64,000 bases of DNA from an uncultured bacterium (GCA_963705505.1 CAVPJU010000003.1:192001-256000), one strand, 5' to 3'. Positions 5,243 to 20,881 are shown, counted from the first letter of the stretch. Notes: a model not told the origin generated them from the letters alone. Made by a program: numbers and translations.

Positions 5243-5440
5243 ATTGTCCTCTCTTATGCCCATGCTCACACGAACAGCCCGGTCGTAAAAATATACCCCG
5301 ATTAAAACGGTTCTCAATGTTTTGATACCCGAATTATAGATATCCGCCTCAAAAGACCGTATCGGAGCGCGTAAGTCCATTGTTTTTAGGCGGCGTGTGT
5401 TGTAATATGAGTTTCTCTGATGGCGCAAGGAGGCTCTCAA

Positions 5441-6424
5441 ATGGCTACACTGGTTACAGGGGCTACGGGTTTCTTGGGCTCCCACATCGCAAGGAAGCTC
5501 GCCGAGAGGGGAGACAAGGTAAGGATACTCCTCAGAAAAACCAGCAACACTATAAATATAGACAACATAAACGCCGAGAGGGTTTACGGCGATGTAACCG
5601 ATATAGACTCCATCAGGAAAGCCCTCGAGGGCTGCGACACACTCTACCATACGGCGGGGGTCGTATCGTTCAAGCAGGCCGATTATAAAAAGATGGATGA
5701 TATAAACGTAAAAGGCACCAATAACGTATTTACGGCCGCGATGGAAGCCGGTGTGAAAAAAGCCGTATATACGAGCAGCGTGGCGGCGATCGGGCTTAAA
5801 CCGGGGAGGGAGCCGGCTGACGAAGAGACACCGTTTGACCCCGCAAGCACGGATATCCGGTACATAAAATCCAAATACTACGCCGAGCAGGAAGCTCTTA
5901 AATTTTTCGAGAAGGGCCTTCCGCTGGTGATCGTTAACCCGTCGATCGTGATAGGGGCGGGAGATGTTTACGTCTCGACCTCGGGGATAATTCTCTGGTA
6001 CTGCAAGAGGAGGCTCCCCGGCTACACGGACGGAGGCATAAACCTTGTGGACGCCGAGGACGTGGCCCGGGGACACCTGTTGGCGGCCGAGAAAGGGAGA
6101 CTGGGGGAGCGCTACATACTGAGCAACCGGAATATAACCATAAAAGAGCTGTTCGAAGTGCTCGAGAAGGTCACGGGGATTCCGAGGCCTAAAATGAAGA
6201 TACCCTACACTCTCGCTTACATAGGCGCGTTTATCGCTGAGCGCATATTCGGCATATCCGCGCCCAACTATGTGGCAATGGACATAGACTCAATAAAGGG
6301 GTCAAAGCACTACTGGTATTTCGATAATTCAAAGGCGGTCAGGGAACTCGGCTTCTCTCCGAGGCCGCTTGAAGAAACGATAGAAAGCACAGTAAAGTGG
6401 TTCAAGGAAAACGGCTACCTCTGA
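5441..6424 (+). CDS. NAD(P)-dependent epimerase/dehydratase, extended SDR (HpnA/dihydroflavonol-reductase-like)
   Basis: LVTGATGFLG, HTAG, YTSS, YxxSK catalytic motif; AAGGAGG SD before ATG 5441. Confidence 0.9.
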   Translation: MATLVTGATGFLGSHIARKLAERGDKVRILLRKTSNTINIDNINAERVYGDVTDIDSIRKALEGCDTLYHTAGVVSFKQADYKKMDDINVKGTNNVFTAAMEAGVKKAVYTSSVAAIGLKPGREPADEETPFDPASTDIRYIKSKYYAEQEALKFFEKGLPLVIVNPSIVIGAGDVYVSTSGIILWYCKRRLPGYTDGGINLVDAEDVARGHLLAAEKGRLGERYILSNRNITIKELFEVLEKVTGIPRPKMKIPYTLAYIGAFIAERIFGISAPNYVAMDIDSIKGSKHYWYFDNSKAVRELGFSPRPLEETIESTVKWFKENGYL

Positions 6425-7550: not shown

Positions 7551-7901
7551 ACCCGCTCGCAACAGCCCGTCAGTTAAAATATATTCATATACAACTATCC
7601 AGTCCGCTCATCCGCGTGTAACACTTCTTAATAATCGTCGATATGCCCGGCCTGAAGTAAAGTCTTCTTTTTCCACGACTTGTAATATTCGGGTAAAATA
7701 TTTGCGGGGTTATTAACTGATTTAATTAGATATAATCAGCACCGGATAACTGGTTACGGCACGTACTTAATAAAGTACGATTGAGGTGAGCAGGATTATA
7801 TCTCATTATAGTTAATTATATTTTTCAATATTCTTCCCCCGGTTTTATATAACCTATTGAAACAAAAAACAAATTGCACTAAAATTGCAAAAAGGGGTAG
7901 T

Positions 7902-8000
7902 ATCCTTCCGAAATGGCAAACTATCCGAAAGGGTAGGACGCAAAGCCTCAAGCCTAAGGACTTGCCAAGTGCTGTCTATGGCGGTTGGGTTGCCGAAGAT
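7902..8000 (+). ncRNA. c-di-GMP-I (GEMM-I) riboswitch
   Basis: GGCAAA-CTATCC-GAAA-GGGTAG-GACGCAAAGCCTCAAGCCTAAG...TATGGCGGTTGGGTTGCCGAAG: P2 with GAAA tetraloop, GACGCAAAGC junction, CCTAAG/TATGG receptor in P3, P1 CTTC(C)G/CGAAG. Confidence 0.92.
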
Positions 8001-8114
8001 GAGTTACTTGCAATAATTCTAATATTCGAGGATAATTATAAATGAGCTGTAAACGATAACCTTAGCTATATTAAAGTATATTGCTAAAATTTGCTTTCAG
8101 GGAGGGGAACGATA

Positions 8115-10874
8115 ATGGGGATAATAATCAGGGAGAAGAAAGACCGGAGAGGACACGAAAGAATCCCCGTAAATTTTATCGTTTATTCCAGAAACACGGG
8201 AAAGGTGATGGGACAGGCAAGGGACCTTTCATCGAGAGGACTCTTTATACAAACGGAAGATGAATACGAACCGGGGACTAAACTCCTCCTCGAGTGCGAT
8301 CTCTCGGGCGCGCATCCGGTTAAAGCTTACTGCGAGGTCAGGAGATTCGAATCGAACGGAACCGGAGCGCACGGAATCGGGGTCGAATTCATAAACCTCT
8401 ACGAATCCGACAGGACCAAGCTGCTGAACTATATAGAGAGCAGTAAGAACAAACTCAATTCCGACGACTATTATTTATCCGATTTTAATGACATACCCGA
8501 CGATGACCTGTTTAAAAAGGCCGAGGTCTTCTGGCAATACAAACTGGACATGGAATCGAAGGGATACATAAGGTACAGAAGACCCCTTGCGTCGCCCTCC
8601 GCGCATAAAGTGATCATCGACGACGATTTCACGGGAAAGAAAAAAGAGATGATCATGATGGGGAGCAACAACTACCTTGGCCTCACTTCCCATCCGAAGG
8701 TAATCAAAATTGCAAAAGAAAAAATCGACAAATACGGCGCCGGAGCAGGGTCCGTCCCGCTCCTTGCCGGGACTTTCGACATACACAGACAGCTCGAGAT
8801 AAAACTCGCTGAGCTAAAAGGGTGTGAGGACGCGATCATATTCCCGAGCGGCTACGTAACTAATCTCGGATGCATACAGGCCCTCGTTAAGAACGAGGAC
8901 CTGGCCGTTATAGACAGGCTCGCCCACGCCAGCATCATCGACGGCTGTATGCTGTCCTCGGGGACGTTCAGGACGTTCAAGCATTCAGACGTCGACAGTC
9001 TCGAAAACGTGCTGAAGAGGAACCGTGACAACTTTAAAGGCAAGCTTGTAATCATAGACGGCGTCTATAGTATGGACGGGGACATAGCTCCCCTTCGTCA
9101 GATCACGGAGACCGCTCACAGGTACGGCGCCAAGATAATGGTCGATGAGGCTCACGCCACCGGTGTCATAGGGGATAAGGGAAGAGGAACGCCGAGCCAC
9201 TTCAAAATGAAGCCGGGCGAGGTAGATATAGTCATGGGGACACTGAGCAAATCCCTGGGCGGCATTGGCGGATTCATAGCCTCGACGAAAGAGGTCGTAA
9301 ACTATCTCAGGTACTATACGAGATCCTTCTTCTTTTCATCCAATTTCCCCCCTTCTGTCGCGGCCTCCGTGCTCGCCGCAATCGAGGTGATGGAGACGGA
9401 CAACTCGCTTCAGAAAAGCCTCTGGAGCAATATCAAATATATGAAGGAAAACCTGAAATCGATGGGATTTAAAACGGAACAGACAGAGTCCGCGATAATT
9501 CCCGTCATTATAGGGGACGAGCTCACTCAGAAAAAGATGAGCAGGAGATTCCACGAAGCCGGCATATATGTAAACGCGATCCCCCACCCCGCAGTGCCCA
9601 AAGGGCAGGAAAGGTTCAGGTTCAGCCTGATGGCTACTCACACGCGCGAGGACCTGGACAGGACGCTCGAAGTAGTCGAAAGCCTGGGAAGGGAATTCGG
9701 AATTATAGACAAGCCGGTTTCATTAAGCGTCCCCGAGGGTCAAAAATACACCGTGAAAGAGGTCTCCTCGAAGGAAGACATCGAAAATTCAGTCAGGTTC
9801 TCATGGAAAGTGTACAAGGACTATCCGGCATGGGTGCCCTATTTCCTGATAAAGGACCACGTAAAACTGATTTCGAACGATTACTTTTACTTCAGAAAGG
9901 TTTACGGAAAGAGGATCGTCGTCGAGGAGAACGGGGAGATAATCGGCACGGTAAGCGCATTCATAGATAATTATTACAACCGCTACCACGACACGAAAGT
10001 CGGATTCCTCGGGTTTTTCGAAGCCCTCCCGGACAAAGAAGAAGCAATAAGCCTTCTGCTGGATAGAGCCGAGGAATTTCTCGTAAGAGAGGGATGTACG
10101 GAACTGCAAGGGCCCGTGAACGGAATTTTCGGAATCTTCGGGGGCGGCCTGCTTTCGAGCAACTACGGCAAAATACCGTCATTCCTGCAGGTGTACACCC
10201 AGCCCTACTACCATGACTACTTCACGAATGCGGGATTCAGTCCGGTCAAAAAACTGCTCCATTACACCATAGACCTCAAATCACCCGACAACGTGAACGC
10301 GATAATGAAATACTCGCGGGAATCGTTGCCGCCGGATATAAAAATCAGGCAGATCAACAAATCCGATTGGGACAGAGAGGTACGGAGCGTCGTCAGAATT
10401 TTCAATGATTCCCTCGCTCATCTCTGGGGCAATGTTCCCTTCGATGCAGACGAATTCATAGAGTTCGCGGATGAGTTCAAGAGTCTGATCGTTCCCGACT
10501 ACTGGCTTATTGCAGAATCCGGCGGCGAAGCGATAGGCTTCATAGGGGGATTCCCGCAATACGCTTCCGTATTCAGGGGTTTAAACGGAGAGATCAAGCC
10601 ACACAAGCTGGTAACGCTGCCCCTCCAGTTGAGAGGCATCAAGGAAGGCGTTTTAATGATCATGGGTCTGCTGGACGAATATAAGGGAATGAGAATCGGC
10701 ACTATTCTCCTCAGCAAAGTCTGTGAGGCGATGATCGGGAACGGGTATGAAAAGGTGGCCGGCACATGGGTTCTGGAAGACAACTTAGGCTCGCGGCGTA
10801 TCGTGGAGAACCTGGGCGGAAAGGTCGACCTGCACTGGGAGATGTATTCAAAAATTCCGGCAATGAGTGAATAA
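8115..10874 (+). CDS. Fusion: PilZ + PLP alpha-oxoamine synthase (Spt/BioF/CqsA family) + YghO/bCerS-like GNAT region
   Basis: RGHER and DLSSRG PilZ motifs; GSNNYLGL, HASIIDG, DGVYSMDG, DEAH, GTLSKS (PLP Lys); C-terminal WKVYKDYPAWVP, GFLGFFE, GPVN, PYYHDY, WVLEDN; GGAGG SD before ATG 8115. Confidence 0.88.
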   Translation: MGIIIREKKDRRGHERIPVNFIVYSRNTGKVMGQARDLSSRGLFIQTEDEYEPGTKLLLECDLSGAHPVKAYCEVRRFESNGTGAHGIGVEFINLYESDRTKLLNYIESSKNKLNSDDYYLSDFNDIPDDDLFKKAEVFWQYKLDMESKGYIRYRRPLASPSAHKVIIDDDFTGKKKEMIMMGSNNYLGLTSHPKVIKIAKEKIDKYGAGAGSVPLLAGTFDIHRQLEIKLAELKGCEDAIIFPSGYVTNLGCIQALVKNEDLAVIDRLAHASIIDGCMLSSGTFRTFKHSDVDSLENVLKRNRDNFKGKLVIIDGVYSMDGDIAPLRQITETAHRYGAKIMVDEAHATGVIGDKGRGTPSHFKMKPGEVDIVMGTLSKSLGGIGGFIASTKEVVNYLRYYTRSFFFSSNFPPSVAASVLAAIEVMETDNSLQKSLWSNIKYMKENLKSMGFKTEQTESAIIPVIIGDELTQKKMSRRFHEAGIYVNAIPHPAVPKGQERFRFSLMATHTREDLDRTLEVVESLGREFGIIDKPVSLSVPEGQKYTVKEVSSKEDIENSVRFSWKVYKDYPAWVPYFLIKDHVKLISNDYFYFRKVYGKRIVVEENGEIIGTVSAFIDNYYNRYHDTKVGFLGFFEALPDKEEAISLLLDRAEEFLVREGCTELQGPVNGIFGIFGGGLLSSNYGKIPSFLQVYTQPYYHDYFTNAGFSPVKKLLHYTIDLKSPDNVNAIMKYSRESLPPDIKIRQINKSDWDREVRSVVRIFNDSLAHLWGNVPFDADEFIEFADEFKSLIVPDYWLIAESGGEAIGFIGGFPQYASVFRGLNGEIKPHKLVTLPLQLRGIKEGVLMIMGLLDEYKGMRIGTILLSKVCEAMIGNGYEKVAGTWVLEDNLGSRRIVENLGGKVDLHWEMYSKIPAMSE

Positions 10875-13452
10875 ACAAATGATTGACAGACAATTGTCCA
10901 TGTCGGAAGGGAACGGAACGAACATCCAGAAATCGATATTCAGTATTGTTGCGTTCGTTCTGCTCCTCTTCTGCATAGGGAATTTCCTATTAGGTCTCAA
11001 CAGGGTGAACAAACCCTACCCCGGATTTTTCTTCTATAAAAACCTCGTCATAACAGATATATCGCCGAAAACAGTCAACGGCGAGATGCTGAAAAGGTTT
11101 AAGGATAAATTAAAGGCAGTAAACGGTATACCTGTCAGAATCCCCGATGACGTATTTGAAATAATCGACAAAATCCCCGTGGGATCCCAAGTGGAATACA
11201 CGATACAGAGAAACAGTGATACATTCAGCGTTACCATCCCGATAGAGAAATTAGCACTAAAAGAGATGCTTCTCCTATTCGGAATCATATATGTGATAGG
11301 CATCGTGTTCCTTATCATCGGCGTGATGGTTCTTCAAAAGAAGCCTTACCTGAAGGCCAGTAAGGCGTTTTTCCTCTTCTGTGCTTCGATATGCGTATGG
11401 TTTGTCGGATCGTTCGACGCACAGGCTGTCTATTTATTCGACCAGCTGAGCTTCTTTTCCTGGATCTTCTGCCCGCTATTCGGAATATATCTGATGTTTA
11501 TTTTCCCGTCCGATACCAAACTGAAGGGAATGACGCACAATTTGGTGTCGATATTGTTTTTATTTATTTCAGCTATGCTTTTCGTTCTTCAGTTCATTTT
11601 CTTCTACAACTATGAAATATGGAAATACGTTAATACCGTAAGCTGGATTTACGTAGTCCTTAGCACCGTGATTTTCCCCATCTCTTCGCTCATGACCTAC
11701 ATGAATCCGTCGTCGGCGCTTGAAAAACAACGCGCGCAGATAATATTACTCGGCTGCATTTTCGGCTTGCTTGCCCCGGCTTCGGTGGTAGGCTGCATCA
11801 CGGTCTTTAAAATAAGCATGCCGTATAACCTGATGGCTCTCCCCGTGATAATTTTTCCCGTGTCCATCGCATACGCCATAGTAAAGCATAAGCTCTTCGA
11901 CATAGACGTAATCATAGAAAAGGCACTCACGTACGGACTCCTCACCGGAGCCGTGGGAGGCATCTTCGCACTCACGGTCCTGGGCTTCAACGTCGCCTTC
12001 GCCAAATACGGCGGATGGAAGAACCCGGCTTTCTTCGTTATCCTTAGCGGATTCCTAGTCATCGCCCTCAACCCCCTCAAGAACCGGATACAGGACCTAG
12101 TCGACCTGACATTTTTCAGAAAGAAGTACGATTACAGGGGGACGGTGGAGGAAGTGAGCTACGCCATGACGTCGCTCTTAAGCCTCGACAAGATAGTCGA
12201 TAAGATCATCGACATAGTCGAGAGCACCATGTTTTCAACTCCTGTCTCCGTATCCATATACAATCAGGACCTCGGAGCCTATGAGCAGTATTTGAAAGAA
12301 GGGGATATCCAAAGCCCGCCCGATATGACCGTCACTGAGGACAACATTCTGGTACAGCACCTTAATTATCACGGAAAGGAAATCTTCAGGGAAGACCTGA
12401 TTGCCGATGAGAGGTATATCCGCAACTCTCAGAAGCTTATGAGCGAGTTCGAGAGGTTCAATGCATCGCTTTTCATACCGCTCTTTTTCAAGAAGCAGCT
12501 GATAGGGTTCATCGCGCTCGGAGAAAAAAAGTCCGGGCTCTCCTACACGTCGCGCGACGTGATGCTGCTTAAGCTTCTTGCGAACCAGAGCGCGATAGCG
12601 ATCGAAAACGCCCTCGCATTCAAACTCGTCGAAGATTATGCGAAGAAGCTCGAAAAAACCAATAAGGAGCTCAAAGACGCGCAGACACAGCTCGTGCACG
12701 CGGAAAAGATGTCAGCGATCGGGCAGCTTGCCGCGGGCGTGGCCCACGAGATAAGGAACCCCTTAAACATAATCGAGGGGGCAAGGTACTACATATCCAC
12801 TTATATGATGGATAAAGAAAACACGGAGGTCGTCGGGGAATACCTCGATTATATAAAACACGAGGTGGACAGGACAAACAGGCTGATAGACAGCCTGCTC
12901 AAGTTCTCAAAAGCCGAACCGCCCTATTTCGAGAGTGTCAATATCAACAACGTACTCGAGAACGTCGTAATACTCGTACGGAAGCAGCTATCGGACAACA
13001 ATATAAATCTTGCTGTGAGGTTCGACGAAAACATCCCTCAGATCATGGCGGACCCGAACCAGCTCTGGCAGGTATTCATCAATATTATATTAAACGCCAT
13101 ACAGGCGATGCCAAAGGGCGGGGACATGACCATAGAGACTTCGACCAGGTGGGACGAATTCGCGAGCAGTGATAACCACCACATATACATACATTTCAAG
13201 GACACAGGCGTGGGAATAGACAAAAAAGATATCACGAAGATCTTCGATCCGTTTTTTACGAAAAAGGATATGGGAACCGGACTCGGACTCTCAATCGCCT
13301 ATAAGATTATAGAAAAACACCAAGGCAGAATAATAGTGGAGAGTGAGAAAGGGGCCGGGACAATATTTACGATTGAACTTCCATCAAATAACTATAATAT
13401 TACTGCGGGAGAGGAAGATGCCGAACACAAGGAAACGGGTGCTGGTTGTTGA
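10867..13452 (+). CDS. Membrane sensor histidine kinase (PDZ-like periplasmic domain, multi-TM bundle, GAF, HisKA-HATPase)
   Basis: DKLKAVNG..V...GSQVEYTIQR PDZ-like segment; many hydrophobic helices; PLFFKKQLIGFIALG..LANQSAIAIENA GAF; AHEIRNPL H-box; N/G1/F/G2 boxes; overlaps upstream stop; exact start uncertain. Confidence 0.9.
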   Translation: MNKQMIDRQLSMSEGNGTNIQKSIFSIVAFVLLLFCIGNFLLGLNRVNKPYPGFFFYKNLVITDISPKTVNGEMLKRFKDKLKAVNGIPVRIPDDVFEIIDKIPVGSQVEYTIQRNSDTFSVTIPIEKLALKEMLLLFGIIYVIGIVFLIIGVMVLQKKPYLKASKAFFLFCASICVWFVGSFDAQAVYLFDQLSFFSWIFCPLFGIYLMFIFPSDTKLKGMTHNLVSILFLFISAMLFVLQFIFFYNYEIWKYVNTVSWIYVVLSTVIFPISSLMTYMNPSSALEKQRAQIILLGCIFGLLAPASVVGCITVFKISMPYNLMALPVIIFPVSIAYAIVKHKLFDIDVIIEKALTYGLLTGAVGGIFALTVLGFNVAFAKYGGWKNPAFFVILSGFLVIALNPLKNRIQDLVDLTFFRKKYDYRGTVEEVSYAMTSLLSLDKIVDKIIDIVESTMFSTPVSVSIYNQDLGAYEQYLKEGDIQSPPDMTVTEDNILVQHLNYHGKEIFREDLIADERYIRNSQKLMSEFERFNASLFIPLFFKKQLIGFIALGEKKSGLSYTSRDVMLLKLLANQSAIAIENALAFKLVEDYAKKLEKTNKELKDAQTQLVHAEKMSAIGQLAAGVAHEIRNPLNIIEGARYYISTYMMDKENTEVVGEYLDYIKHEVDRTNRLIDSLLKFSKAEPPYFESVNINNVLENVVILVRKQLSDNNINLAVRFDENIPQIMADPNQLWQVFINIILNAIQAMPKGGDMTIETSTRWDEFASSDNHHIYIHFKDTGVGIDKKDITKIFDPFFTKKDMGTGLGLSIAYKIIEKHQGRIIVESEKGAGTIFTIELPSNNYNITAGEEDAEHKETGAGC

Positions 13453-15334
13453 CGACGAACAGCTCATACTCAAAATCATATCCGATATACTGACCAAGGA
13501 AGGATATGAGGTCATAGTCGCCAATAACTGCGAGAAGGCCGCAGAATACCTGAGGTCGTCTAATTTTAACGTGGTACTCTCGGATATAAAGATGCCCGTA
13601 AAAAGCGGCATAGACCTTCTTGAAGAAATCAAGAAGAAGGACCCAAATATCCCTGTCATCCTTATGACGGGTTTCGCCTCCCTCGAAACCGCCGTCGAGG
13701 CCGTCCAGAACGGAGCGTTCGATTATCTTATTAAACCGCTCGATTACGGCAAGCTCAAAAGCGTTATCGAACATGCCGCCGACAGGTACGAGCTCTACAG
13801 GGAGAACACGCGCCTGCTCAGCGATCTCAAAGAGCTGAACACCAACCTCGAGTTAAAGGTCAAAGAAAGGAACAGGCAGCTTGAGAACACCCTCAACAGC
13901 ACCATAGAAAGCATAATCACGACGGACAGGGACCTGACAATAGAGACTGCAAACCCGAAGTCTTCCGAAATATTCGGCAGGAACTGCGTAGGGGAGAAAC
14001 TGAGCCTTTTATTTCAAGGGATCAACTTCGATACAATAATTCCCAAAATCCTGAGTGATCCGTCGTATTCGACGAAACACGAAGTAAGGCACGACAATAA
14101 GTTCCTCGAAGTGACCCTTTCTCCTCTGATCGACTTCGAGACGAAAGAGATATTCGGAGTGATAGCCGCGACAGAAGATATAACGGAGAAGAAGAAACTC
14201 GAAGCTCAGCTCATACACTCCGCAAAGATGTCGGGCGTAGGCCAGCTGGCTGCGGGAGTCGCGCACGAATTCAACAACATTCTGTCGGGCATTATAGGCT
14301 ATACCAGCCTCGCGCTCACGAGACAGGACTTGGACAGCGCCAGGAAAGACCTGAAAGTCATCGAGAAGGCCTCGGACAGGGCGGTCGAAATAGTAAACAA
14401 GCTCCTTTCCTTCTCGAGGCAGAAAGGGGAGAAATTCCAGGTAGCGCAGATCGAGAGCGTCATAGACGACGCGCTCGGCCTGGTCGAACACACTTTCGAG
14501 ACCGAGGGCATAAGGATACTCAGGAGCTACGAGAAGGTCCCCGCTATAAGAATGAACCTGGGAGAGTTGCAGCAGGTTTTCCTCAATCTGGCGATAAATT
14601 CGAAACACGCCATGCCCCAGGGCGGCGCCATAGCCATCAGCACGAAGCTCGCCGGGAATTATGTAAGAATCGACTTCTCCGATACTGGAGTGGGCATCCC
14701 CCCTGAAAACCTGTCGAGGATATTCGAGCCGTTTTTTACGACAAAACTGAGCGAAGGCACAAAATCCGGCACGGGCCTCGGGCTATCGGTTATCTATGCG
14801 ATCATTGAAAGGCACGGCGGCCGCATCGATGTCTCAAGCGAGGTCAATAGAGGCACGACGTTCACGATCCTCCTCCCCAATATTCAGGCGGTTTCGAAGA
14901 CCCCGGAAGCGGAGCCGGCACAGAAAAGCCAGAACGGTAAAGTAATCGAGCTAAGGCGCAAAGGGAACGTCCTGATCGTCGACGACGAGGAATTCATCAG
15001 AGACATAGTGAGCGAATGCCTGTCGAGCACGGGGCACAATGTGATGACTGCAGGAAGCAGCGACCAGGCGATCGAGCTCATAAAAAAGAATCATTTCGAC
15101 ATCACGTTCCTTGATTTTTCCATGCCCAATAAAAGCGGCCTCGAGCTCCTCAGGGAAATAAAGGTCATAGACCCCAACTCCACAGTGGTCATTATCAGCT
15201 CAAGGCCCGAGGAGCAGCTCCCGGACGAGCTTTCGGACGAGGGTTCTTACAATATCATTAAGAAACCGTTCTCGGTGGACCAGATACAAAACGCGGTCTC
15301 CAGGGTTCTGGGGGCGGAGGCGATGAGCAGATAA
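13418..15334 (+). CDS. Hybrid kinase/response regulator REC-PAS-HisKA-HATPase-REC
   Basis: VLVVDDE..SDIKMP..KP; AHEFNNIL; DTGVG, GTGLGL; C-terminal LIVDDE..LDFSMP..KPF; ATG 13418 after GGAGAGG, overlaps upstream kinase. Confidence 0.92.
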   Translation: MPNTRKRVLVVDDEQLILKIISDILTKEGYEVIVANNCEKAAEYLRSSNFNVVLSDIKMPVKSGIDLLEEIKKKDPNIPVILMTGFASLETAVEAVQNGAFDYLIKPLDYGKLKSVIEHAADRYELYRENTRLLSDLKELNTNLELKVKERNRQLENTLNSTIESIITTDRDLTIETANPKSSEIFGRNCVGEKLSLLFQGINFDTIIPKILSDPSYSTKHEVRHDNKFLEVTLSPLIDFETKEIFGVIAATEDITEKKKLEAQLIHSAKMSGVGQLAAGVAHEFNNILSGIIGYTSLALTRQDLDSARKDLKVIEKASDRAVEIVNKLLSFSRQKGEKFQVAQIESVIDDALGLVEHTFETEGIRILRSYEKVPAIRMNLGELQQVFLNLAINSKHAMPQGGAIAISTKLAGNYVRIDFSDTGVGIPPENLSRIFEPFFTTKLSEGTKSGTGLGLSVIYAIIERHGGRIDVSSEVNRGTTFTILLPNIQAVSKTPEAEPAQKSQNGKVIELRRKGNVLIVDDEEFIRDIVSECLSSTGHNVMTAGSSDQAIELIKKNHFDITFLDFSMPNKSGLELLREIKVIDPNSTVVIISSRPEEQLPDELSDEGSYNIIKKPFSVDQIQNAVSRVLGAEAMSR

Positions 15335-15350: not shown

Positions 15351-15713
15351 ATGGAAGAGTTTTCCCGTTTTTACTGTAAAATATTCGTGAATGAAAACGA
15401 GATATATTCCGGTGACCTCGGAGAGGTCCCCGAAAGGCTCAGGAAGGGAATGATCCGCGACTTAAGCGAATGGGCGGGCTCTCTCGGCAAGAGGGGCCTG
15501 AATGAACTAATTTATTCACACCTCGCCTGGTATGAGGAGAAAGGGACGTATTGCGAGACTTGCGGGGCATGGGCAAAGGACGATGACGGCGGGGAATGCG
15601 GGGAGTGCGGGCAAAAGTTCGGGGAGCGTTATATCCACGAGCGGAACAAGAGGCTCGATATGATTATTACATGCGTGGGAATGATTTCGAGCGTGCGAAT
15701 TTCGGAAATCTGA
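15351..15713 (+). CDS. Hypothetical protein with CxxC-x10-CxxC zinc ribbon
   Basis: CETC...CGEC; starts 16 nt after hybrid kinase stop. Confidence 0.65.
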   Translation: MEEFSRFYCKIFVNENEIYSGDLGEVPERLRKGMIRDLSEWAGSLGKRGLNELIYSHLAWYEEKGTYCETCGAWAKDDDGGECGECGQKFGERYIHERNKRLDMIITCVGMISSVRISEI

Positions 15714-15786: not shown

Positions 15787-16092
15787 ATGAAGCTGATTGT
15801 CAGAGGACAGATATTCCCGAAGGTATGGGAGATCGCAGAGGGCGTCAGGAAATTAAGAGAGGACAGAAAACCCGTTAACATAGGAGCGGGGACAGTCGGC
15901 TTCCCAGTCTATGAAGTCGAGCTTCCGGACGATACCAGAAAAGAGGGTTTATACTTTATTACTCCTCAGGGCATAAGACTCTATTTCTATCCCGGCGATC
16001 AGTATCAGATCGGATATCTGATCTCCGAGATCGACCGCGATCACTTGACCGAAAAACATTTTAAAGATACGGTCCATAACACGCCCTCCTGA
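15787..16092 (+). CDS. Hypothetical protein
   Basis: GAGGT SD, protein-like composition, fills the gap between genes. Confidence 0.6.
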   Translation: MKLIVRGQIFPKVWEIAEGVRKLREDRKPVNIGAGTVGFPVYEVELPDDTRKEGLYFITPQGIRLYFYPGDQYQIGYLISEIDRDHLTEKHFKDTVHNTPS

Positions 16093-19770: not shown

Positions 19771-20881
19771 ATGTTCGGAGAAAATAAAGAGCAGATACAG
19801 GAGCTTAAGAAGAGACTGGTAGTACTCGGAGACTTTCTTTGACCTCCCCGGGAAAAAATCACGTCTTAAGGAACTCGAAGAGCTGACAGGCAAGCAGGGG
19901 TTCTGGGATAATGCCGACCGGGCGCAGGAAATCTTAAAGGAGCAGGCACGGATCAAAAGCGCTATCGACGGCTGGCAGAGGCTCTCCCGAGAGCTCGAGG
20001 ACGCGGAAGTCCTGGAGGAGCTGTCCCTCGAAGAAGAAAATGAGGAAGCCGCCCTGGAAGCCAGGGAAAAGCTGTCAGAAATACAGAACCAGGTCGAGAA
20101 CCTCGAATTCAAAAGGATTCTGGGGGAGCCCGATGACGAGAGAAACGCAATCGTATCGATAAACGCAGGCGCGGGCGGCACCGAGGCGCAGGACTGGGCG
20201 GAGATGCTCCTAAGGATGTATCTGAGGTACGCCGAGCTTAACGATTATACGACCGAGATGATCGAGTACTCGGAAGGGGACGAAGCCGGCATGAAGAGCG
20301 CAACGTTCCTCGTAAAAGGGGATTACGCGTTCGGCTATCTCAAGGGCGAGAGCGGAGTACACAGGCTGGTCAGGATTTCCCCGTTCGACGCCAATAAGAG
20401 AAGGCACACGTCGTTCGCATCCGTTTTCGTTTCTCCGGAAATCGACGAGAGCATAGAGGTCGATATTGAGGAAAAAGATTTGAGGGTGGATACCTACCGG
20501 GCGAGCGGGGCCGGCGGGCAGCACGTAAACAAGACCGATTCCGCGATAAGGATAACCCACTTCCCGACGGGGATAGTCGTAAGCTGTCAGAACGAACGCT
20601 CCCAGCATCAGAACCGGGCTACGGCGATGAAGGTACTGAAGGCAAGGCTCTACGAGCTCGAAAAGGAAAAACAGCAGGAAAAAATAGACGAGCTGCACTC
20701 GACGAAAAAGGAGATCGGATGGGGGAGCCAGATCCGTTCCTACGTGCTCCATCCGTACAGAATGATCAAGGACCACAGGACAGGGTACGAGACCGGAAAT
20801 GTCGAGCCCGTTTTGGACGGAGACCTGAGCGAATTCATAAAGAGCTATCTTCTTATGCACTCGGGTGAAAAAAAGGTATGA
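19771..20881 (+). CDS. prfB: Peptide chain release factor 2, programmed +1 frameshift at CTT-TGA-C (19837-19843)
   Basis: 23-codon leader MFGENKEQ...GDFL*; +1 frame DLPGKK..FWDN..GAGGTEAQDWAEM joins ORF 20204..20881 with SPF and GGQ motifs. Confidence 0.96.

Follow-up and report, generated by a model that had tools for sequence, protein, structure and literature searches.

A PilZ, alpha-oxoamine synthase and YghO-type acyltransferase fusion from an uncultivated member of the Dadabacteria: a candidate lipid synthase linked to c-di-GMP

Ceramide synthesis in bacteria has been defined only recently. As set out in excerpts of three publications (PMC9386255, PMC11087976, PMC11324152), the pathway of Caulobacter crescentus and Escherichia coli B runs through Spt, bCerS (CC_1154 in the former, YghO in the latter) and CerR, and the excerpt of PMC11087976 proposes for Caulobacter that the alpha-oxoamine synthase (AOS) reaction comes first and that N-acylation follows. 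Here we describe a gene in which the same two enzyme types, a pyridoxal phosphate (PLP)-dependent AOS and a soluble YghO-family N-acyltransferase, are found in a single polypeptide behind an N-terminal PilZ domain, with a proposed order of reactions that fits the one in that excerpt. The gene lies in a stretch of 64,000 nucleotides (GCA_963705505.1 CAVPJU010000003.1:192001-256000), called here the window, which belongs to the genome G000 of an uncultivated member of the Dadabacteria (2.88 Mb in 10 contigs, 93.6% complete). In contrast to the described pathway, its AOS falls outside the known Spt clades and under the curated cut-offs, no dedicated acyl carrier protein (ACP), acyl-ACP synthetase or operonic CerR accompanies it, and the gene is predicted to be controlled by a riboswitch for cyclic di-GMP (c-di-GMP) and is linked to two histidine kinases.

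Other described systems share single traits with this locus. The cellulose synthase BcsA and other PilZ-regulated enzymes likewise carry a canonical PilZ domain fused to an enzyme that makes an envelope component, but BcsA is a membrane glycosyltransferase, whereas here the PilZ domain stands at the N-terminus of a cytoplasmic PLP/GNAT synthase of lipid type. In the alpha-hydroxyketone signalling systems CqsA/CqsS and LqsA/LqsS, an AOS gene is likewise found next to that of a membrane histidine kinase; the present AOS is only distantly related to those enzymes (201.9 bits against a cut-off of 428 for the CqsA family NF005526), bears an extra N-acyltransferase domain, and comes with two kinases and c-di-GMP inputs. 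As for the c-di-GMP-I (GEMM-I) riboswitches of family RF01051, the match is full-length, on the same strand, upstream of the gene and well over the gathering score, but a target class made of an AOS-acyltransferase and kinases was not found in the literature searched, and here the product of the downstream gene carries a PilZ domain as well. The literature searched describes no PilZ- or riboswitch-controlled AOS or ceramide-type enzyme, no regulation of bacterial ceramide synthesis by a nucleotide second messenger, and no lipid-synthesis enzyme with c-di-GMP control through a riboswitch and a PilZ domain on one gene. A search on Dadabacteria and sphingolipids returned nothing on the fusion gene by title or abstract, and neither 'fused' nor 'fusion' occurs in the main text of a Black Sea paper, PMC11334938. 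The fusion, the riboswitch ahead of it and the two kinases behind it together suggest a previously undescribed link between c-di-GMP and a lipid or lipid signal.

The reading that we favour, and regard as probable, is that the gene encodes a two-step envelope-lipid synthase under double c-di-GMP control. In a decarboxylating condensation, the AOS domain would turn an amino acid and a long-chain acyl thioester into a long-chain alpha-amino-ketone resembling 3-oxo-sphinganine; serine is the obvious candidate for the amino acid, and alanine or glycine are possible. The tandem-GNAT domain would N-acylate the amine to an N-acyl amino-ketone, an oxo-ceramide-like lipid, whose ketone a separate reductase may later reduce. 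The second messenger would act at two levels, the c-di-GMP-I riboswitch making the mRNA responsive and the N-terminal PilZ domain the protein, and the presumably co-transcribed pair of histidine kinases would belong to the same module. The product would most likely be an envelope lipid of the surface or sessile programme governed by the other c-di-GMP riboswitches of G000. An earlier note on this DNA, which had proposed a channelled two-step oxo-ceramide synthase under allosteric c-di-GMP control, is supported in part. If the favoured reading is true, the gene would provide a natural single-chain Spt-like and bCerS-like enzyme, handy for biochemistry and for the disputed order of acylation and reduction; it would also represent a new class of c-di-GMP output, in envelope lipid remodelling or lipid signalling, and give a handle on the physiology of uncultivated Dadabacteria, with 10 c-di-GMP riboswitches in 2.9 Mb. 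The coding sequence and its domains are as follows:

8115..10874, plus strand: coding sequence of the PilZ-AOS-tandem-GNAT fusion (P0001), 919 residues
8142..8438, plus strand: PilZ domain, residues 10-108 (PF07238, E 3.3e-14), with RxxxR at R12..R16 and D/NxSxxG at D37-L-S-S-R-G42
8646..9674, plus strand: AOS domain, residues 178-520 (PF00155 Aminotran_1_2, E 2e-57), with the PLP lysine K379
9735..10871, plus strand: YghO/bCerS-family tandem-GNAT N-acyltransferase domain, residues 541-919, 379 residues (BLASTP, hhalign, AlphaFold2, Foldseek)

Translation of 8115-10874 on the plus strand gives one stop-free frame of 919 residues, and Pfam adds a GNAT match at residues 781-901 (E 4.8e-13), so that both agree with the earlier description of a single uninterrupted open reading frame (ORF) with PilZ, PLP oxoamine synthase and C-terminal GNAT parts. 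The motif coordinates given then proved exact, with RGHER at residues 12-16 (8148-8162), DLSSRG at residues 37-42 (8223-8240) and the PLP lysine of GTLSKS at residue 379 (codon 9249-9251), and the C-terminal motifs W..Y....WVP, GFLGFFE, PYY and WVLEDN are all present in the sequence. A mechanical ORF call opens earlier, at TTG 8091; the ATG at 8115 is preceded by the Shine-Dalgarno sequence GGGAGGGG (about 8100-8107) and agrees as a start with the N-termini of homologues.

Since the source is a metagenome-assembled genome (MAG), three separate genes might have been wrongly joined in assembly or annotation, an explanation that was rejected and whose probability we take to be close to nil. In a survey of 120 genomes of the phylum, in which a special AOS was defined by a best E of 1e-155 or lower, 37 genomes carry the special AOS and 26 have the fused form, single-contig genomes among them. 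The three-domain frame runs end to end in 21 of the 37 (one of these, G076, with internal stops), five further fused copies are interrupted by contig ends only, and the other 11 genomes have split forms. Moreover, 31 protein clusters from several sources match the C-terminal part, almost all of them with the PilZ+AOS+GNAT layout. Mis-assembly at the domain junctions, a concern raised in the earlier note, was checked against independent contigs, which bridge both junctions: a contig of 2573 bases (record 14) from the run of another study reaches from 7932 to 10504, and a further run supplies two contigs (records 3 and 5), each across one junction. Linker residues are also conserved in an alignment of 28 full-length fusions. 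The fusion is genuine.

As regards the enzyme encoded in the middle domain, K379, H271, D344 and H347, that is, the Schiff-base lysine and the His/Asp contacts to PLP, are invariant in the 28 fusions. All AOS families of NCBIfam match the domain at E below 1e-59 and the cut-off of none is reached: TIGR01825 (BioF/Kbl subfamily) gives 418 bits against 535, Kbl 402.5 against 460, BioF 396.8 against 426.45 and ALAS 288 against 339, and as a positive control E. coli Spt gives 599.2 against a cut-off of 500. With the Spt of the E. coli yghO cluster the domain shares 35% identity (E 9e-76). The other AOS of G000 is a true BioF (457.9 bits against 426.45) in a bioB-bioA-bioF cluster elsewhere, and the AOS domain of the fusion, judged by sequence, is not the housekeeping enzyme.

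Trees were built from the 150 best of 25,710 representative matches, with the AOS domains excised, plus E. coli Spt, BioF and Kbl and other loci; FastTree took 160 rows and a quick IQ-TREE tree 66 chosen rows (the other 94 were omitted for speed), and the rows of both trees leave aside alphaproteobacterial and eukaryotic Spt, HemA and CqsA. The two methods agree on three AOS groups. In the IQ-TREE tree, a branch with a support of 98 separates the BioF/Kbl group from the AOS of the window, and the Spt-like group is a clade of 14 rows with a support of 99, which holds E. coli Spt, the AOS found beside a YghO gene in Ignavibacteriales, and proteins whose best family is Spt-CFB. Labelling by family of 71 single-domain rows gave 18 of BioF/Kbl type (by curated cut-offs or best matches) and 6 with Spt-CFB as best family; the other 47 match no family at E 1e-125 or below. 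The AOS of the window belongs to the remaining, uncharacterised clade, which also includes FAAL-ACP-AOS (FAAL, fatty acyl-AMP ligase), ACP-AOS, REC-AOS, AOS-FemAB_like and PilZ-less AOS-YghO fusions; clade-mates with FAAL, ACP or YghO partners point to long-chain acyl substrates and leave the amino acid undecided. On this last question, the PLP motif reads GTLSKS, with Leu where the SPT-characteristic motif GTFSKS has Phe (PMC10196870), and because the serine contacts in SmSPT are mostly made through water (PMC10196870), sequence is not decisive on the use of serine, which we infer only as a candidate substrate.

That the two highest family scores are those of TIGR01825 and Kbl would also fit a small-molecule route, in which the AOS would work on a short acyl-CoA in the manner of Kbl or ALAS and the GNAT domain would acetylate the amine to a soluble N-acetyl amino-ketone, as in alaremycin-type pathways. 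A pathway with an AOS and an N-acetyltransferase is mentioned in an excerpt of PMC12006855, and the loop GAGSVPLLAGT aligns gap-free with the Thermus AOS/KBL type, which it resembles more. We nevertheless hold this route to be improbable. Both scores stay under their cut-offs and the tree sets the AOS of the window apart from the BioF/Kbl group, of which 18 proteins were confirmed; the idea that the middle domain might act as BioF or Kbl, which the earlier note had kept in view, does not agree with this, as it scores below both cut-offs and lies across the branch just mentioned. In addition, no tdh partner is adjacent, the excerpted sources assign the YghO family a role in the sphingolipid cluster and no other, FAAL and ACP are fusion partners among the clade-mates, and the short-chain dehydrogenases/reductases (SDRs) found in related operons are OleD-like.

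The C-terminal domain is homologous to YghO from end to end. E. coli K-12 YghO aligns with residues 541-919 by BLASTP at E 1e-39, with 25% identity over 376 aligned positions (query 7-373 of 379), hhalign gives a probability of 100 over 364 columns, and stand-alone homologues of about 375 residues share 25-30% identity. Beyond the generic GNAT, residues 541-919 have no curated family match, and no PDB structure matches the domain by sequence. Its AlphaFold2 model (predicted local distance difference test, pLDDT, 89.9; predicted template modelling score, pTM, 0.87) has a tandem-GNAT fold, and the best Foldseek matches are tandem GNATs, namely the glucosamine N-acetyltransferase 5kf1 (E 2.7e-16), 7q3a, 2wpw and MshD 1ozp; they include MAB_4324 and a tandem GNAT of the clavulanate pathway. 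Across 33 family members, WVLEDN shows an invariant L347, D349 and N350, with conservation of 90% or more at V346 and E348. The domain is the sole YghO-family member in G000. A gene list in the excerpt of PMC9386255 gives the acyl-CoA N-acyltransferase gene of the sphingolipid cluster as 'aca: CC_1154, yghO ECD_02850', and E. coli strain G8 has an intact cluster with the order yghO, fatty acyl-AMP ligase, NAD epimerase, ACP, spt and lptG-lptF. The YghO/bCerS-like nature claimed earlier for the C-terminus is therefore confirmed by homology as regards YghO, and is tied to Caulobacter CC_1154 through that excerpted list and the E. coli cluster. A GNAT domain of this family may be expected to N-acylate a long-chain amino-ketone.

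In this line, AOS and N-acyltransferase partners recur together. Six PilZ-less AOS-YghO fusions are found among the 150 best of the 25,710 representatives, and an Ignavibacteriales MAG has separate AOS and YghO genes side by side. Proteins with the layouts PilZ-AOS-FemAB_like (AOS 62% identical), FemAB_like-AOS-PilZ in permuted order and FemAB_like-AOS also occur, as do the further relatives REC-AOS and AOS-STAS (relatives with swapped architecture: P0077, P0090, P0135, P0184, P0218, P0083 and P0161). Among the AOS relatives, repeated exchange has affected the type of acyltransferase as well as the signalling domain. The earlier view that AOS and N-acyltransferase carry out consecutive steps fits their being fused or adjacent in several separate lineages. 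Moreover, REC-AOS, AOS-STAS and PilZ-AOS-FemAB_like proteins suggest that signal-gated alpha-oxoamine synthases form a wider, undescribed theme.

The c-di-GMP-binding motifs of PilZ domains are RxxxR and (D/N)xSxxG. Both are present in the fusion, as R12-G-H-E-R16 and D37-L-S-S-R-G42, in a domain that scores 53.5 bits for PF07238 (cut-off 22.5) over residues 10-108; none of R12, R16 and G42 varies in the 28 aligned fusions, and S39 is conserved in 90% or more of them. Binding of c-di-GMP by this domain is therefore predicted. A weak match to TIGR03030 CelA covers the PilZ part.

Upstream of the gene, the second predicted point of control comprises the following elements:

7857..7885, plus strand: promoter-like site TTGAAA-17-TAAAAT, a 10/12 match to consensus and a consensus match only
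7905..7997, plus strand: c-di-GMP-I (GEMM-I) riboswitch aptamer (Rfam RF01051)
7998..8114, plus strand: leader between aptamer and start codon, with a conserved promoter-like block and the Shine-Dalgarno sequence GGGAGGGG

The aptamer matches the full model, 1-87, with 78.8 bits (E 8.1e-14; gathering score 35) and stands 118 bases ahead of the start codon. The position that we take to be G20 of the Vc2 aptamer is a G here, as in c-di-GMP-selective members. An aptamer is found upstream on the same strand in all 8 full-fusion loci fetched with flanks, and also in G013, L016 (G076) and the contig records L053 and L058; related loci retain the -10-like TAAAAT/TAGAAT of the site at 7857-7885. A look for terminator-like sites in the leader region found none. 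The minimum free energy fold of the leader pairs CCUUCC at the 5' edge with the Shine-Dalgarno sequence and is not better than those of shuffled sequences (z -0.86). In the orthologous leader of L036 a hairpin with a U-run is seen by eye, and comparison by eye of nine leaders allowed no firm ON or OFF call.

Several observations weigh against a two-step envelope-lipid synthase under double c-di-GMP control. On the side of the enzyme, the middle domain stays below every curated Spt cut-off (Spt-CFB NF047600, 385.2 bits against 640; Spt-beta NF047599, 344.6 against 500; Spt-alpha NF047603, 298.8 against 670) and outside the Spt-like clade, in a separate clade of 34 rows with a support of 97 in the 66-row tree, so that its earlier likening to Spt is not borne out. 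Among solved structures its closest relatives are Thermus AOS (296 bits), S. multivorum SPT (288.5) and E. coli KBL (280.6), enzymes of three different activities, and therefore do not fix the amino-acid substrate. No partner of AcpR/AasR type was found in G000, tblastn giving no ACP match and AMP-ligase matches that are only 22-27% identical, and fused-type loci have no reductase in the operon. The channelling that the earlier note had put forward gains nothing from the full-length AlphaFold2 model, whose pTM of 0.48 comes with no confident geometry between domains. On the side of regulation, the aptamer stands after PilZ-AOS and directly before the kinases in G009 (L041/L028), in G004 (L030) and in the records L065 and L066, which means that the constantly controlled unit may be the kinases. 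No aptamer was found in 8 of the 18 fetched loci; among these eight, L048 is cut at the 5' end of the gene and L049 (G011) is a full fusion. Finally, the leader block ACTTGCAATAATTCTAATATTCGAGGATAATT at 8008-8036, kept in at least 6 related leaders, reads as a sigma-70-like promoter, TTGCAA-17-GATAAT; it would be a second promoter that bypasses the riboswitch, or else belong to the expression platform.

The genes that follow the fusion are these:

10867..13452, plus strand: histidine kinase 1, with a multi-pass membrane sensor region and then GAF-HisKA-HATPase, overlapping the fusion gene at its stop codon by 8 bases
13343..15334, plus strand: hybrid histidine kinase 2, REC-PAS-HisKA-HATPase-REC, with a true start probably downstream of 13343
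15351..15713, plus strand: small protein of 120 residues, Cys-rich (CxxC...CxxC), conserved in 13 of 19 mapped loci
15787..16092, plus strand: small protein of 101 residues, conserved in 11 of 19 mapped loci

Neither the sensor region of kinase 1 nor the two small proteins have a Pfam family above noise. The riboswitch and the linked pair of kinases, neither of which the earlier note mentions, make the locus look like a module responsive to c-di-GMP instead of a single enzyme. ORFs and clusters were mapped in the window and 18 further loci, and the AOS gene is followed by two histidine kinases in the window and in 17 of the 18; in the remaining one (G016) a match to a kinase, 1.6 kb downstream, is cut off by the end of the contig. 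In the phylum survey the sensor region of kinase 1 occurs in 42 of the 120 genomes, among them all 37 with the special AOS, the five extra ones being G002, G003, G014, G015 and G030; as these genomes are kin, this is a pattern and not a statistic.

Such a linkage opens another view of the product, which would be a hydrophobic signal derived from the amino-ketone made by the AOS, with or without the GNAT, rather than a bulk membrane lipid. The membrane/GAF kinase would sense this product and relay it through the hybrid kinase, with c-di-GMP gating production, in a logic like that of Cqs and Lqs. The steady company of the kinases in the mapped loci and the near restriction of their sensor to genomes with the special AOS speak for it, again among related rather than independent genomes, and the link does not depend on the partner, which may be a GNAT domain fused to the AOS, a GNAT encoded separately, an SDR or a barrel of the outer membrane. 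In the split forms, a barrel-like protein with a signal peptide and a weak Alginate_exp match adjoins the AOS in 8 loci; an OleD-like 3-oxo-lipid reductase stands between the AOS and the kinases in L042 and L047, and beside the barrel gene in L044; and in G013 the order is riboswitch, PilZ-less AOS, barrel, separate YghO gene and kinases. The signal view also accords with REC, STAS or PilZ domains on related AOS proteins, with the riboswitch directly before the kinases in several split loci, and with genes of REC-HD-GYP type near three loci: in L042, L043 and L049 (G005, G007 and G011) the AOS operon has a REC-HD_5 (HD-GYP-type) gene a few genes upstream, and tblastn places the G000 counterpart, with 56.6% identity, beyond the window at C3:119844-120908. 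On the other hand, the AOS is far from CqsA, both by the NF005526 score given above (201.9 against 428) and by 121 bits for PDB CqsA (2wk8/3kki) compared with 288-296 for SPT and KBL; an N-acyl product with two chains would be strongly hydrophobic for a molecule that has to diffuse as a signal; no ligand-binding family can be recognised in the sensor of the kinase; and linkage within one small phylum may in part be inherited gene order. Altogether, a signal circuit seems to us possible but unlikely. We would put forward as a tentative and doubtful proposal its more specific form, in which the N-acyl amino-ketone is the ligand of the co-inherited multi-pass/GAF kinase, c-di-GMP switches synthesis on, and the kinase feeds back on c-di-GMP turnover; if true, such a circuit would be a new class of AOS-based signal synthase and receptor, distinct from Cqs and Lqs.

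A reductase for the ketone was looked for in the surroundings of the proposed lipid synthase. An SDR encoded at 5420-6424 on the plus strand was considered as CerR and rejected, being HpnA/SdmB-like with conserved synteny, and is not counted as evidence for the pathway. It scores 346 bits for HpnA (cut-off 367.65) and 246.6 bits for the sterol demethylase SdmB, shares 31% identity over 218 residues with the E. coli epimerase (epi), and in most related loci stays next to chorismate synthase; G000 (93.6% complete) yielded no squalene-hopene cyclase domain. Elsewhere, at C10:65674-66699, G000 carries a 47% identical copy of the OleD-like SDR among unrelated neighbours, and the homologues of the barrel protein have unrelated neighbours too.

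The genome as a whole holds 10 c-di-GMP-I aptamers, but 2 PilZ, 5 GGDEF and 2 HD_5 domains. The other aptamers lie at the following positions:

C10:837174, C6:571506, C7:3817, C8:109836, C6:69646, C3:80338, C10:581058, C6:287118 and C1:152752: nine further c-di-GMP-I aptamers of G000

Judged by N-terminal sequence alone, most of these precede proteins with signal-peptide-like starts, and one precedes a run of small genes resembling pilM/N/O/P/Q.

Two minor observations were made along the way. In L016 (G076:C30:59820-65519), a locus of the same genus, the fusion gene stops after 748 residues, and several in-frame stops are found in the GNAT part and in the next kinase, with the riboswitch intact; this looks like decay of the module. 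Further along the window, an ORF of 225 residues at 20204-20881 on the plus strand covers PCRF profile positions 121-194, opening midway through that domain, and then runs on into RF-1, which is the pattern that a release factor 2 gene with a programmed +1 frameshift would show.

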